Shown: positions 14,209-63,573, counted from the stretch's first letter. The stretch is 64,000 bases of DNA from an uncultured Clostridia bacterium (GCA_944386325.1 CALXAP010000002.1:63030-127029), one strand, 5' to 3'. Numbers and translations: made by a program. Notes: generated from the sequence alone by a model not told the origin.

Positions 14209-14327
14209 CGATTTATTTTTGATGTGAATTTTTATTTAAAGAAATTTCTCCGAAGCGCGGGCGAACAATGTTCGCCCCTACAAATATATTACTATTTTTT
14301 TATCTAAATGTTCTACTTTATAAACAT

Positions 14328-14891
14328 TTAAAGTAACATTCTCCTCTTTACCTCTTTTAAATCTTTCCAAAAATATATTTTCTTAGTATCATCTCTAAGT
14401 AGTGCAGCTGGATGAAAAGTTGGCATATATAAAATTCCGTTTTTATTAAACCATTTACCTCTTGATTTTGTAATTCCTAAATCTTTACTTAATATAGCTT
14501 TTAATGCAATACTTCCTAACAACACTATTACTTTTGGTTTTATAAGTATAACTTGATTCCTTAAATAATCTAAACAAGCATCTACTTCATCATCTTGAGG
14601 ATTTCTATTTCCTGGTGGTCTACATTTAACTATATTTGCAATATATACTTCCTCTCTATTTATACCAATACCTTGAAACGCCATATTCATAAGTTTTCCT
14701 GCTTTTCCTACAAAAGGGATTCCAGAATAATCCTCGTCTGCTCCAGGTCCTTCTCCTATAAACATTAAATCTGCATTTTTATTTCCCTCACCAAAAACAA
14801 CATTTGTCCTTGTTTTACATAATTTACACTTTTTACACACTTTACAATTCTTTTCTAGCTCTTCCCAATTACTGTACATTTTTGCCTCCAC
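14328..14891 (-). CDS. udg: family-4 uracil-DNA glycosylase
   Basis: GEGPGADED...GIPFVGKAGKLM...NIVKCRPPGNRNP motifs typical of UDG family 4, with the CxxC Fe-S ligands near the N-terminus. Confidence 0.75.
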   Translation of the reverse strand: MEAKMYSNWEELEKNCKVCKKCKLCKTRTNVVFGEGNKNADLMFIGEGPGADEDYSGIPFVGKAGKLMNMAFQGIGINREEVYIANIVKCRPPGNRNPQDDEVDACLDYLRNQVILIKPKVIVLLGSIALKAILSKDLGITKSRGKWFNKNGILYMPTFHPAALLRDDTKKIYFWKDLKEVKRRMLL

Positions 14892-15730
14892 TATTTTATA
14901 TATATTAATGAAACATTTACTCCATACTTTTCTTGTGTTTCTAGTCTTGAAGAATGTAAAATATCTGGATTACACATACTACAAATATTTGAATCTACAA
15001 TATTTTCATCTCTTATATTCAATTCTTTCATTAAAATTTTGTTTATTAATACAGTATCTATATAATATTTTTGTTTATTATTTTTTATATCACCTTTATA
15101 TATTATTTTTTCTAGCATATTTGTATAAGAATACTTATCTTTAAACATTTCCATTACATCTTCATCAACTTCAAAGTGGCATTTTCGTATGCTTGGACAT
15201 ATACAGCATATTATATCAGAAGGATTACTGCCAAATTCTTCTTCCATTTTTATTATTTCTTGTTTTATTATTCCACTTAAAGTTCCTCTCCAACCAGAAT
15301 GAACATTTCCTATAATGTTTTTAGCTTTGTCATATAGCATAATTATAACACAATCTGCATTTGTTGCTGCTAGTACAATATTTCTCTTTGCTGTTATCAA
15401 TCCATCTATTTCATTTAAACTTTTATTTTCAAAATCTGGTTCATTTAAATTTTCTTTATTTCTTATGACTTTAACATTATTACTGTGTGTAAAAATAGGC
15501 TTTACTAAATTATTATAATCCATTCCTAAACTATTAAATATTTTTCTATAACCATTTTTAGCAATAATTATATTTTCTGGTTTTCCTCTTGTTTTTAAAT
15601 TTATTCCATCATTTTTTAATATATAATAATGTTGTATTTTATTATTATATTCTAATAATTTTCTAAACTGTAAATATTTTATACCGTTTTTTTCACCTTG
15701 GATAACATCTTTATTAGTTAAATCTTTCAC
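14891..15730 (-). CDS. pgeF: YfiH/PgeF family (laccase-domain) peptidoglycan editing factor / purine nucleoside phosphorylase
   Basis: Conserved HSGWRGT motif and C-terminal CxxC...H pattern. Overlaps addB by 17 nt and udg by 1 nt (operon-like). Confidence 0.65.
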   Translation of the reverse strand: MKDLTNKDVIQGEKNGIKYLQFRKLLEYNNKIQHYYILKNDGINLKTRGKPENIIIAKNGYRKIFNSLGMDYNNLVKPIFTHSNNVKVIRNKENLNEPDFENKSLNEIDGLITAKRNIVLAATNADCVIIMLYDKAKNIIGNVHSGWRGTLSGIIKQEIIKMEEEFGSNPSDIICCICPSIRKCHFEVDEDVMEMFKDKYSYTNMLEKIIYKGDIKNNKQKYYIDTVLINKILMKELNIRDENIVDSNICSMCNPDILHSSRLETQEKYGVNVSLIYIK

Positions 15731-18700
15731 TTATCTTCTTTAATACCTCCTTTTTGTCCATATATTTTATATAATTATATTCATTATTCTTATTTCTAGT
15801 ATTAAAATTACATATCGATCTATAGTTACAATACTCACATGGAGTTTTTTTAGATTTATCATAAAATGGTTTTATATCTATCTTACCACTCATTATTTCT
15901 TTTCCAATATCTTTTATAGTATCTATAACCTGCTTTTGTAAATTCTTAAAATCATCTTTGTTAATAGCATTAGAAAACTTCTCACTTATATTTCCATCTT
16001 TATCTATATATGCAGGTATATATTGCGAAAATCCTTTCTCTAAATTATTATCCATCATTTTAATAACTTTTACATCTGCTAAAATTAAACCATGCATCTT
16101 AAATTTTTTTCTTATTTCCTCTTCTATTTGTTTTTCATCTGCATTATTTGAAACATTAACTATTGGATCTGTTAAATTAAAATATAATATTCCTGCTGAT
16201 GAATAATTCTCTTCTTTTGTTATACTATCTAAATAAGTTAACAGTTGTAATTGCAAACCATAAACAACTTCATTTAAATCTATATCCTTAACACTAGATT
16301 TATAATCAATTATTCTTATATATTTTCCATCATCATTTTCTGCATAATCCACTCTATCTATTTTACCTGTTATTTCTATTTTTCTATTGTCATCAAGCTC
16401 TATTTTTATAGGAGGATAGTTTCCCCCATTTTTAAATTCAATCTCATTTCCTAATACTTTAAAATTACTATTTTTTAATTGCTCAATTATATAGAAAATA
16501 GATTTTTTAACAACATTTTTTAATCTTTTAGTTAATATAATAAATCTAGTTGAACATGTAAATTTATAATATTTAGCTAAATTCAATTTATCATTTATAA
16601 TTTTATTTATTATATCTTCTGTTTGTTTCATTTGAATATTTTTAATATCTATATTATTTTTATTCACATAATCAAAAAATTCATCTATAACTTCATGCAT
16701 AAATGTTCCAGTATCAACAGATTGTATTTTAAAAGTTTCTTCCTCTTTTAATTTTAATCCATATTTTAAATAAAAAGAATATGGACATTTTCTATATTGT
16801 TCAAGCCTAGATATACTTGTTTTAAGCTCATCTCCATATAATTTTTCTATATATTCTTCATTTATCTTTTCTGGTAAATTAGTATAATGTATTCCTTTTA
16901 AAGCAGTTTTTAGTTTTTCTTTCCACATATTATCCTCTTTATAATAATTATATACATCATACCATATATCATCTATATTATTTCCATCTTTTAGTTTATA
17001 TATATTTTCTAATAACTCATCAAAAGTAGATTCTTTTGTACCAATAAAATTTTCTTTTTTTATTATATCACTTTCTCTTTTTATATTAGGAAAAATATTT
17101 TTTATTTTAGATATTAACACAGATGGTCTTATTGCTTTTCCTTCGTTATTTGTTGATGTATATGAAAGAAATAATCTATTTTCCGCTATTGTTAATGCTT
17201 TATATATATTAAATTGTTCATCATATAATTGCTCTATAGTTGTTTTTGCAATTTCTAACTGTTTACTTCTTAATACCTCTCTATCTTTATTATCCAAAAA
17301 TCCTTCACTCTTATTTACACTTGGGAAAACTCCATCATTCATTCCTATAATAAAACAAATATCTACTTTATGAGTTCTAGATCTTTCAATATCTCCAAAA
17401 ATAACTTGGTCTTGAAAACCAGGAATTGTGCCTAAATCTTTATTTTGTATTCCTATTGTAAGCAATTCTTTATATCTATCAAAACCTATTTTTTCATCTC
17501 CAAATATATTAACAATTTCATCTAATACTTCTACAATTATATTTAAACCTGTTTCATATTCTCTTGCTATTTCTACTTCACCAATTTCTTCTAATCTTTT
17601 TATTTTACTTTCAAGTTTAGAAAGTACATTTTCATTTAAAAAATAATAGATTTCTTTTGAAATAGTTCTTACATTTTTCTCTTCAAAAATTTTATTCTTC
17701 AAATTAATAAGTGGATTAACAATTTTCTTCCTTAATTCATTTAATCTTGTTAAATCTTCACTATCTAAATTTCCATAATTCCAATCTTCTTTATACCACT
17801 TATTGCCTTTTATTCCCCATTTTACACAATACTTTTCTAATACAAAAATATCTTCATTTTCTATATCCAACAAACCTGTTTTAATATATCCAAAAACCGC
17901 TTCATATGACCAATTCTTAGAAAAAATCTCAAGCATAGATATTATTAGTTTAATTAATATATTTTTACTCAAATCTCTTTTTTCGTCTATGTACACAGGA
18001 ATATTATATTTATAAAATATGGCTTTTGCTATAGAATTATAGCTTTCTATATTTTTTGTAATTATTGCTATATCTTTATATCTATAATTTTCATCTCTAA
18101 CTAATTTTATTATTTTCTTTGCAACAAATTCTAATTCTGAATATGGATTCATAGCTAAAAAGATATTTATATTTTTAGTTTCATTTTCAAACTTTTTATA
18201 ATTTATATTATACAAATTATTCTCCAAAAACTTTAGTTCATTATTTTTGAATCTATATAAATTTTTCAGTTCAATAGGTTTATCTATTTTTATATTATTC
18301 TCTTTGGCTATTTGAATAATTTTCATAATGGCTTTTTTATTTGGATAGAACACATCAATTTCTGGCATAGTATTTTCTTCTAATATATCTATACACATTG
18401 TTATATTAACTTGTTTTGCTTTTTTCATTAATTCTTGTATTATTAAATATTCTTGTTTTGTAAAACCAGCAAATTCATCTATATATATTAAAGAATTATC
18501 AAAGCTTTTACTATATTTAATTTTTTCAAATAATATAGTTAATAAATCTATATTATTTATATAATTATTTCTTATTCTCTCTTCGTAATTTTTATATATT
18601 ATATCTATATCATTCAATTTAGTCTTTAAATATATATCATCTATATCTTTTGCAACATCTGCTAATTTATTTTCTGTAACATTATGTTTTTTAAGTTCAG

Positions 18701-63002: not shown

Positions 63003-63034
63003 TTCCTAATTTTTTATAGTTATATTTAAAAGTT

Positions 63035-63120
63035 GATGCGAAAAATTGCAAAGCAATTTTTCTTTGCATCTAGTATTTTTACTTTATGGGAAATGTAATT
63101 TCATATAAAGTAAAAATACT
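63035..63120. repeat. family I AT-rich palindrome repeat, copy 2
   Basis: GATGCGAAAAATTGCAAAGCAATTTTTCTTTGCATC...TTTATGGGAAATGTAATTTCATATAAAGTAAAAATAC, homologous to 42820-42905. Confidence 0.6.
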
Positions 63121-63191
63121 TATTTATATATTTTATGTCAATCATTTGCAATATGTTTTTATTAATGATATAAATTGTACTTAGGTATTTA

Positions 63192-63573
63192 TTACTATTC
63201 ACAGCCATAAAATATATAAAGATTTTGGTATAATAATATTGATTATTCACATCTAATTTAAAATTTATATTTTCAATTTATCGAGAAATAGCTTTGTAGT
63301 GCGGGCGAACAATGTTCGCCCCTACATTTAATTTTTATATATTATGGTTTATAGATTTTGATATAATAATATATAATAAATTTTGAATGCGATTGGAGAT
63401 GTTTTTAGAATTTGTTATATAATTTAATGAGGAATGTTCATGGGCAAAATCTTTGATTTTGAGCCTGAATGAAAGAGGCTCATTAAATTATTTTACAAAT
63501 TCTTAAATATCGTATTGAGCCGAAAAATTTATTATATATTATTATATCAAAATCTATAGCCGCGAATTGTAAT
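63192..63573 (+). repeat. largest composite MITE-like element (A-D-B-C-D-E-A'), holding the third E-module copy
   Basis: TTACTATTCACAGCC ... AGCCGCGAATTGTAAT termini. GC palindrome TGTAGTGCGGGCGAACAATGTTCGCCCCTACA at 63296-63326. Micro-ORF at 63440..63472. Confidence 0.75.

Follow-up and report, generated by a model that had tools for sequence, protein, structure and literature searches.

Repetitive extragenic palindromic (REP) sequences and the REP-associated tyrosine transposases (RAYTs) have been described mainly in Proteobacteria, and Firmicutes are not mentioned in the main text of the surveys consulted. Clostridia have been noted to contain RAYTs of Group 1 that are not accompanied by abundant repeats (PMC5581495). 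Here a 64-kb stretch of DNA from an uncultured Clostridia bacterium (the window; 25% GC, with nearly all genes on the minus strand) was analyzed with respect to a GC-rich hairpin that is repeated 13 times between its genes. The Correia elements of Neisseria and RUP of Streptococcus pneumoniae are, like the units that carry this hairpin, non-coding sequences of 100-250 bp with terminal inverted repeats (TIRs) and target-site duplications (TSDs), which are intergenic and often located at gene 3' ends, differ in presence among strains, and include variants formed by internal deletion and recombination. [quoted passage not shown] This MITE family has recently been mobile and is active in the species of the window: insertion with TIRs and an 8-bp duplication was observed. 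Homology of the core to RAYT-associated REPs was also observed.

Mobile hairpin-bearing units in the window

By nhmmer search with a profile of the whole unit, exactly 13 hairpin copies were detected in the window (E-values from 5e-32 to 1e-16), together with two fragments of arms that lack a hairpin (12598-12654 and 57587-57633). The motif was present at all 13 sites listed in a preliminary description of this DNA, each located between open reading frames (ORFs) as described, and the alignment of these sites with their surroundings gave a single homologous family of units. Read on the minus strand, a copy consists of TGTAG-GGGCGAACA-N-TGTTCGCCC-G-nn-CTACA, with GTAG directly 5' of the GC-rich stem. 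It forms a stem of 9 bp around a single central nucleotide, and TGTAG and CTACA pair as a second, outer stem of 5 bp across a one-sided bulge of 3 nt. The perfect palindrome of about 30 bp in the preliminary description was thus not found for the 30-mer, of which the outer stem is bulged, but was correct for a 19-nt core in six copies (14259, 19363, 28335, 29616, 56709 and 63296). With up to two mismatches, this core (GGGCGAACANTGTTCGCCC) gave 10 matches, as compared with 0.00 expected from 100 dinucleotide-preserving shuffles. On the minus strand, the stem is directly preceded by GTAG in 10 copies and by GTAT in the other three. Folded as single-stranded DNA (ssDNA), the hairpin was calculated to reach -10.6 kcal/mol, with z of about -4.2 to -4.7. 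Among the diverged copies of the unit, folding of the stem is retained in 31165 by a compensated A-T pair, and 34613 and 54191 fold no better than shuffled sequences.

Mean pairwise identity among the copies was 85% for the palindrome versus 63% for the left arm and 72% for the right arm, although the genome is strongly biased to AT. The flanking modules, which had been described as always the same, fall instead into related subtypes, and copies 14259 and 38271 have in common only about 20 nt of the right flank. The near-uniform orientation noted before was found again, with 12 of the 13 copies oriented in the same way and 28335 as the only inverted one. The hairpin centres of 10 of the 13 copies are located 60-145 nt past the stop codon of the upstream gene. 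No inverted doublet exists among the 13 copies, of which the nearest neighbors are at least 520 nt apart.

The hairpin-bearing units are 125-160 bp in length, non-coding, and AT-rich outside the hairpin. A total of 13 such units are present in the 64 kb, in addition to two complete copies of a hairpin-less relative of up to 251 bp, herein designated MITE-X, and a third MITE-X that forms the body of a composite at 63191-63573. The automatic search for TIRs and TSDs was noisy in AT-rich DNA, and the pairs reported are those confirmed by eye and by strain alignments. The TIRs are 13-15 bp in length and read (G/A)TAAC(T/A)ATTCA(C/G)RG(C/G), the inverted repeats of the family being also written as GTTACWATTCACRGC. 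They match at 12 of 13 positions in the unit 19304-19445 and at all 13 in 28239-28417, and are also present at 29562-29718, 37697-37852, 63191-63573 and MITE-X; in copies 14259, 38271 and 56709 they are degenerate or missing. The TSD is 8 bp, represented by ATTCTGC(G/A), TAT(C/T)TTTT and CTTTTAAT for hairpin-bearing units and by ATAGAGTT and AATCAGTT for MITE-X. The insertion sites are in AT-rich intergenic DNA, often just past a terminator.

The 142-bp unit at 19304-19445 (minus strand, hairpin 19363-19386) has the ends ATAACTATTCAGAGG (also given as ATAACTATTCAGA...) and CCTGAATAGTTAT, and is bordered at 19296-19303 and 19446-19453 by a TSD, ATTCTGCA / ATTCTGCG, identical at 7 of 8 positions. 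The 157-bp unit in the tuf-plsX spacer (29562-29718, minus strand, hairpin 29616-29646) carries the TIRs GTTATAATTTACGTC and GCTGTGAATAGTAAT and, at 29719-29726 and 29554-29561, a TSD (TATCTTTT / TATTTTTT) that also matches at 7/8. In the unit at 35062-35454 (minus strand, hairpin 35373-35404), of which the own sequence is about 134 bp, the right end is split by a nested MITE-X (35072-35322), and the outer TSD, CTTTTAAT at 35455-35462 and 35054-35061, is perfect (8/8).

The strains compared were one gut-metagenome contig (L117; BRZ_HG NODE_126) that is 100% identical to the window, and nine further contigs from other samples that are 97-99.9% identical to it over 18.4-39.8 kb. In the contigs covering this segment, the strains differed mainly within the intergenic repeats. 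The unit 19304-19445 is absent in contig L115, where the flanks are more than 99% identical and the empty site GAGTTAAAAATTCTGCAGGAAG holds a single copy of the target ATTCTGCA; contig L124 is also empty at this site. The window and these two strains thus represent the occupied and the empty forms of one insertion site with an 8-bp TSD. The comparison of orthologous spacers among strains, which the preliminary description had proposed, thereby detected the presence/absence polymorphism, and together with the TIRs and the 8-bp TSDs this bears out its suggestion of a mobile MITE core. In the unit 28239-28417, the interior carries strain-specific deletions; the degenerate copy 34575-34687 is absent in L115 through a larger deletion, and the copy 38228-38337 is present in all strains compared, with differences in sequence. 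No indels were found at 46.8-64 kb among the ten contigs recovered, which are 99.3-100% identical there.

MITE-X is 244-251 bp in length and lacks the hairpin; it has the TIR GTTACTATTCACGGC, related to the ends of the hairpin-bearing units, a TSD of 8 bp, and the subterminal sequence GATTTTGATATAAT in each of its two arms. It is located at 35072-35322, 45204-45453 and 63350-63572 of the window and at about 17303-17553 of contig L118. The second complete copy (45204-45453, no strand assigned) is 93% identical to that at 35072-35322, and its TIRs belong to the family of those of the hairpin-bearing units. The MITE-X at 35072-35322 (TSD ATAGAGTT) is absent from four strains (L115, L116, L118 and L120), and another MITE-X is inserted in L118 and L123 at window position 22150-22157, with the TSD AATCAGTT. 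MITE-X thus provides two independent insertion polymorphisms, each with a perfect 8-bp TSD, among strains that are more than 99% identical. Since the hairpin-less MITE-X with the same type of ends moves as well, the hairpin is not needed for movement. Other forms of the family are recombinant (the 383-bp composite 63191-63573), internally deleted (28239-28417) or palindrome-less (57585-57700).

The same hairpin and RAYT-like genes in other Clostridia

Upon scanning of one genome per species for the exact 23-mer TGTAGGGGCGAACANTGTTCGCCC, at least 114 loci were found, nearly all of Clostridia among the matches listed, with local GC contents of 24-64%. Ruminococcus, Oscillospiraceae, Gemmiger, Fonticella, Geosporobacter, Anaerosolibacter and Christensenella are included among the listed matches, as are metagenome-assembled genomes (MAGs) labelled Bulleidia, Coriobacteriaceae and Patescibacteria. 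Two stem positions beside GGGCG vary among the matches listed (AA, GA, AC, CA, GC, AT, AG, TT and CG), and the other stem arm is complementary at the inner positions in 240 of 250 listed instances (96%), representing nine dinucleotide pairs. A convergent partner is located 10-150 nt away in 104 of the 278 REP-like matches listed (37%), which is the arrangement of REP doublets forming hairpins (REPINs) or bacterial interspersed mosaic elements (BIMEs). The hairpin of the window matches, over 25-27 nt, the repeats that flank or lie inside RAYT-like Y1 (HUH) genes of many Clostridia.

Three sister MAGs of low GC content (L018, L057 and L088) carry the same hairpin, and the next 20-30 nt are homologous to the right flank in the window. 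In two of the three (L018 and L057) the hairpin is an inverted doublet, and the right flank of the window is homologous to the REPIN spacers there. With this homology and these doublets, the units of the window look like half a doublet enclosed by MITE ends. At one locus outside Clostridia (L089, positions 5826-5900; a Patescibacteria MAG of 24% GC), the exact 23-mer is present twice, 51 nt apart, in an apparent acidic coding repeat (...DDDVGANIVRPIDENN...) within a probable ORF.

By clustering and profile search of the ORFs in the 23-mer loci, a RAYT-like protein of 150-165 amino acids was identified, which has a HUH motif and a downstream tyrosine and scores above the threshold of Pfam Y1_Tnp. 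The best NCBIfam model was NF047646, the REP-associated tyrosine transposase, with 68-71 bits against a cut-off of 80, as compared with 19 bits for IS200, and the only sequence match in PDB was E. coli TnpA-REP (4ER8). Some members are annotated by JGI as 'REP element-mobilizing transposase RayT', with more than 3,100 relatives. In Fonticella (L028), four REPs are located before the RAYT-like gene and a REP array after it, and in Geosporobacter (L062) and a Ruminococcus MAG (L093) one REP is located within 80 nt past its stop codon. In the literature (PMC2817692, PMC3333891, PMC3733652), GTAG REPs and RAYTs are defined by features that the clostridial repeat and gene fit.

All the RAYT-like genes examined as DNA (L028, L062, L082, L093, L125-L129, L144 and L145) contain two inverted REPs in the reading frame, one on either side of the HUH motif; the genes with in-frame REPs are at 2232-2765 of L028, 6752-7246 of L062, 7061-7549 of L093 and 6001-6474 of L125, and in L144 and L145. 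In the L125 gene, the two REP copies are 174 nt apart, both in frame 0, with a GC content of 65% versus 26% for the rest of the gene. Within a wider family of 229 proteins, the REP-encoded peptides are frequent, not universal. The two peptides of a pair vary together among homologues: GRTxFAPT is found at the second site where the first has VGANxVRP or CRGEQCSP, and GRMISAPT where the first has VGADIIRP. The genes with in-frame REPs are single-copy and located in conserved housekeeping neighborhoods. No description of in-frame REP pairs in RAYT genes was found in the papers searched. Such pairs may explain the uniformity of the repeat across taxa and, if confirmed as general, would represent a simple way to pair a transposase with its repeat and a handle on their co-evolution.

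Origin of the hairpin-bearing units

In the proposed mechanism, a REP half-unit captured inside a TIR-type MITE would spread by hitch-hiking as a passenger. The mover would be a trans-acting cut-and-paste transposase of the DDE type recognizing the TIRs, since neither insertions bounded by TIRs nor duplications are made by Y1 HUH enzymes. The hairpin, predicted to fold as a stable stem in ssDNA or RNA, may still be bound by RAYT or may bar exonucleases in read-through transcripts, both as secondary effects.

Several observations weigh against this capture model. For symmetric TIRs either orientation is expected, as opposed to the 12 of 13 copies in the same orientation (two-sided binomial p of about 0.003); capture leaves this bias unexplained, and orientation may have been under selection or may result from a strand-specific ssDNA step. 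Since genes and replication, as judged by GC skew, run in the same direction across the window, the orientation bias within it cannot separate transcription-related selection from such a strand-specific step. No recognizable TSD was found at five units (28239-28417, 37697-37852, 14259, 38271 and 56709). No RAYT was detected in the 64-kb window or the strain contigs by hmmsearch with a profile of 120 homologues, and RAYT is linked to the organism of the window by homology only. Likewise, the gene tables of the window and the strain contigs contain no transposase with matching TIRs, and the putative assignment of the mover to the DDE type is read solely from the TIR/TSD signature. The capture may have proceeded in either direction, that is, a REP entering a MITE or TIRs being acquired around a REP. 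The search for RAYT suggested in the preliminary description was thus successful in other Clostridia, where RAYT-like Y1 genes with the same REP were found, but not in the window or the strain contigs.

Four AT-rich RAYT candidates obtained from two protein searches were rejected: the genomes are 31-41% GC, and their similarity to the window is the hairpin alone. The low-GC RAYT candidates L125-L129, L144 and L145 belong to other organisms. A scan of JGI metagenomes gave no match to the TIR-proximal pattern and four unrelated chance matches to the arm motif. BLAST of MITE-X against plasmids detected nothing, and in BLAST of the MITE against phages only the core of 27-31 nt was matched.

In a classical REP or REPIN system, RAYT (Y1 HUH) would spread the hairpins at the replication fork, via ssDNA, and the presence of TIR-like arms would be incidental. 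The GTAG tag, the stem covariation and the association with RAYT in other Clostridia are all in agreement with such a system, and so is the strand: the GTAG strand is the G-rich strand in 12 of the 13 copies, and thus by GC skew the leading strand, which corresponds to the lagging-strand template on which IS200/IS605-type enzymes act (PMC3333891). HUH Y1 transposition, however, proceeds without target duplication or need of TIRs, in contrast to the TIRs, the 8-bp TSD and the empty site with one target observed here. Furthermore, inverted doublets were none of 13 in the window versus 37% among the matches listed from other genomes, no RAYT gene is located in the window, and the orientation bias cannot tell replication from transcription here. 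Spread of the classical type is therefore considered unlikely. An alternative at the RNA level is a host-selected element at operon 3' ends that serves as an mRNA stabilizer or as a processing or attenuation signal. The position of copies 60-145 nt past stop codons, the co-orientation with transcription, the higher conservation of the core than of the arms, and the stable stem could be expected from such an element, and REPs have been reported as RNA elements elsewhere (PMC3733652). The Rfam 15 scan of the window, however, detected no family for the hairpin and one tRNA only. The stem is followed on the gene strand by GCACTACAAAGC without a T/U tract, and no hairpin within 19000-38600 was called terminator-like when this range was scanned for terminators. 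At least four copies (22207, 34613, 35373 and 54191) are located past a canonical intrinsic terminator and ahead of the next promoter, and therefore most transcripts would omit them. In addition, the presence of copies varies between near-identical strains, and hairpin-less units of the family exist that are equally mobile. With these results, a host RNA element appears improbable, and of the RNA-level REP-like hairpin originally proposed, the REP-like nature stands at the DNA level (GTAG, covariation and flanking of RAYT-like genes), and a role in RNA stabilization or processing was supported by none of the present analyses.

The perfect dyad with CGAAC...GTTCG in CGAACANTGTTCG resembles the SOS box of Gram-positive bacteria (LexA/Cheo box), CGAAC-N4-GTTCG, and could be taken as an operator for a dimeric regulator such as a LexA-like protein. 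The spacer is, however, N3 in all copies as opposed to N4 in the LexA box, and the compensated stem changes elsewhere are as expected for a strand that folds, not for a duplex site of fixed sequence. A total of 13 sites are present within 64 kb, on a mobile unit and mostly downstream of genes. An operator is therefore very hard to reconcile with the data. The earlier view that the hairpin is neither a simple terminator nor a simple operator is shared here. TTGAAT or TTTTGATATAAT in the arms was considered as the promoter of downstream genes and dropped; strong promoter-like sites are located outside the units.

Besides the capture of a REP in a TIR-type MITE, which remains the preferred explanation, a wider account may be put forward, albeit with considerable doubt. 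The REP could be conserved across much of Clostridia by a dual coding and structural constraint, as a REPIN spanning the HUH motif in the RAYT-like gene, and the MITE capture in the window could add a second, enzyme-independent route of spread. In that case, the orientation bias would be due not to chance but to a strand-specific interaction that remains, through RAYT or through replication-fork processing of the hairpin.

Individual copies and relation to known repeat systems

The other copies of the family differ in the state of their ends. The unit at 22155-22287 (minus strand, hairpin 22207-22238) sits in the T-tract of the upstream terminator and has degenerate TIRs, with a probable TSD, CAGTT(T/A)TT, of which the assignment is ambiguous by 1 nt. 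The sole inverted copy (28239-28417, plus strand, hairpin 28335-28369) has the near-perfect TIRs GTTACAATTCACGGC / GCCGTGAATTGTAA, and the 156-bp MITE at 37697-37852 (minus strand, hairpin 37750-37783) has the TIRs GTTACAATTTACAGC and GCTGTGAATTATAAT. In the 383-bp composite at 63191-63573 (minus strand; TIRs ATTACAATTCGCGGC and GCTGTGAATAGTAAT), the long MITE-X body and the hairpin module (63296-63326) are joined at a common ATATCAAAATCT segment. Degenerate copies on the minus strand include that at 31116-31250 (hairpin 31165-31195), which has kept the right TIR (31116-31130) and lost the left end and which is located, as described before, in the fusA-tuf spacer of 298 nt. Another is located upstream of rpsL (34575-34687, hairpin 34613-34644), with the upstream terminator on one side and the rpsL promoter TTGACT-17-TAAAAT on the other, and a third right after the terminator of the upstream gene (54140-54264, hairpin 54191-54222), with the right TIR-like end CTATGAATATTTAC. 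The copy at 56673-56784 (minus strand, hairpin 56709-56738) has an intact core and diverged arms. The copy at 14235-14326 (minus strand, core 14259-14282) has a perfect core, a right flank of the GCGCTTCGGAGAAATTTCT type common to the sister low-GC MAGs, and no recognizable TIRs. The same flank type is found at 38228-38337 (minus strand, hairpin 38271-38304), 32 nt upstream of the start of a NUDIX gene. In the short unit without palindrome (57585-57700, minus strand), AACAAGCTGGATC stands in place of the palindrome, and the right arm and the TIR GCCGTGAATAGTAAC are intact.

Copies 54191 and 56709 are both inside the feoB element, as stated in the preliminary description. There, feoB is split: FeoB_N is located at 60526-61818 and FeoB_C/Gate at 51712-52560, both on the minus strand, with a segment of 7,955 bp (52557-60511) between them. 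In this segment are genes for a large serine recombinase (58869-60482, plus strand), for an SNase-like protein, for a HEPN/nucleotidyltransferase pair, and for DUF3006, MYG1 and a short ProRS. The metagenome contig L137 corresponds exactly to the segment and another contig breaks at 52557, which suggests that the segment is an excisable intervening element.

A third family of intergenic repeats (38336-38532, 12408-12514 and 14123-14196) is partly palindromic with the core ...GTCAAAATGATAGCTAGGGTCTTCC..., and its 197-bp copy at 38.4 kb is absent in strain L116. The block 35323-38336, which carries small ORFs (123, 147, 113 and 103 amino acids) without Pfam or NCBIfam match, is 92-97% identical between strains, as compared with more than 99% in the flanking 16 kb, and thus forms a local divergence hot spot; a small ORF adjoining it at 34.7-35.0 kb has a signal-peptide-like start. 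A minus-strand ORF of 2,478 amino acids is located at 1879-9315 of the window.

Three short-read metagenome contigs from other samples (L138, L140 and L143) end within hairpins, at window positions 56715 and 56727 (copy 56709) and 63321 (copy 63296). Such ends are expected for a high-copy repeat and provide indirect evidence that the core is repeated genome-wide. The units explain the mosaic intergenic regions between strains that are more than 99% identical, explain the breaks in short-read assembly, and offer markers for strain typing.

The hairpin of the window is similar to the REP, BIME and REPIN sequences that accompany RAYT (TnpA-REP) in E. coli, Pseudomonas and Stenotrophomonas (PMC2817692, PMC3333891, PMC3116915) in being a GC-rich imperfect palindrome of 20-40 nt with GTAG 5' of the stem. 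It is also similar in being extragenic and present in many copies, with the stem kept by compensated changes, and the Y1 transposase flanked by this sequence in other Clostridia best matches the RAYT family and E. coli TnpA-REP. The differences are that the copies of the window are singlets, embedded in larger units that have TIRs and a TSD of 8 bp, neither of them a product of RAYT/IS200-type chemistry; that one sequence type is common to many genera, whereas the published REP types are mostly lineage-specific; and that the clostridial RAYT-like genes carry two in-frame REPs inside the ORF, not only outside. In the GTAG-15 REPs of Anabaena variabilis, a GTAG REP is likewise regularly central in a longer inverted-repeat unit, but REP dimers are found there and monomers here, and the phylum and the sequences differ; the passage of Di Nocera et al. 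on these REPs reports no target duplication and no evidence from occupied and empty sites. The subterminal hairpins of IS200/IS605 and of palindrome-associated derivatives are also recognized as ssDNA, in a strand-specific manner, by Y1 HUH transposases, but these elements have neither TIRs nor TSD and insert beside a short target motif, unlike the units of the window. The Correia elements and RUP differ from these units in their TIRs and TSD lengths and have known or proposed partner IS elements, and we know of none with a RAYT-type GTAG hairpin core. Unusual features are that a RAYT-type hairpin forms the core of a TIR/TSD element for which insertion polymorphism was demonstrated, that the element is found in gut Clostridia, for which no REP families are reported in the surveys consulted, and that one repeat type is common to many genera. 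The elements of the window are, however, a mixture of two known repeat types and not a new kind of element, and with a REP family in gut Clostridia and a REP hairpin riding a TIR/TSD MITE, the line between these two classes of small repeats is blurred.

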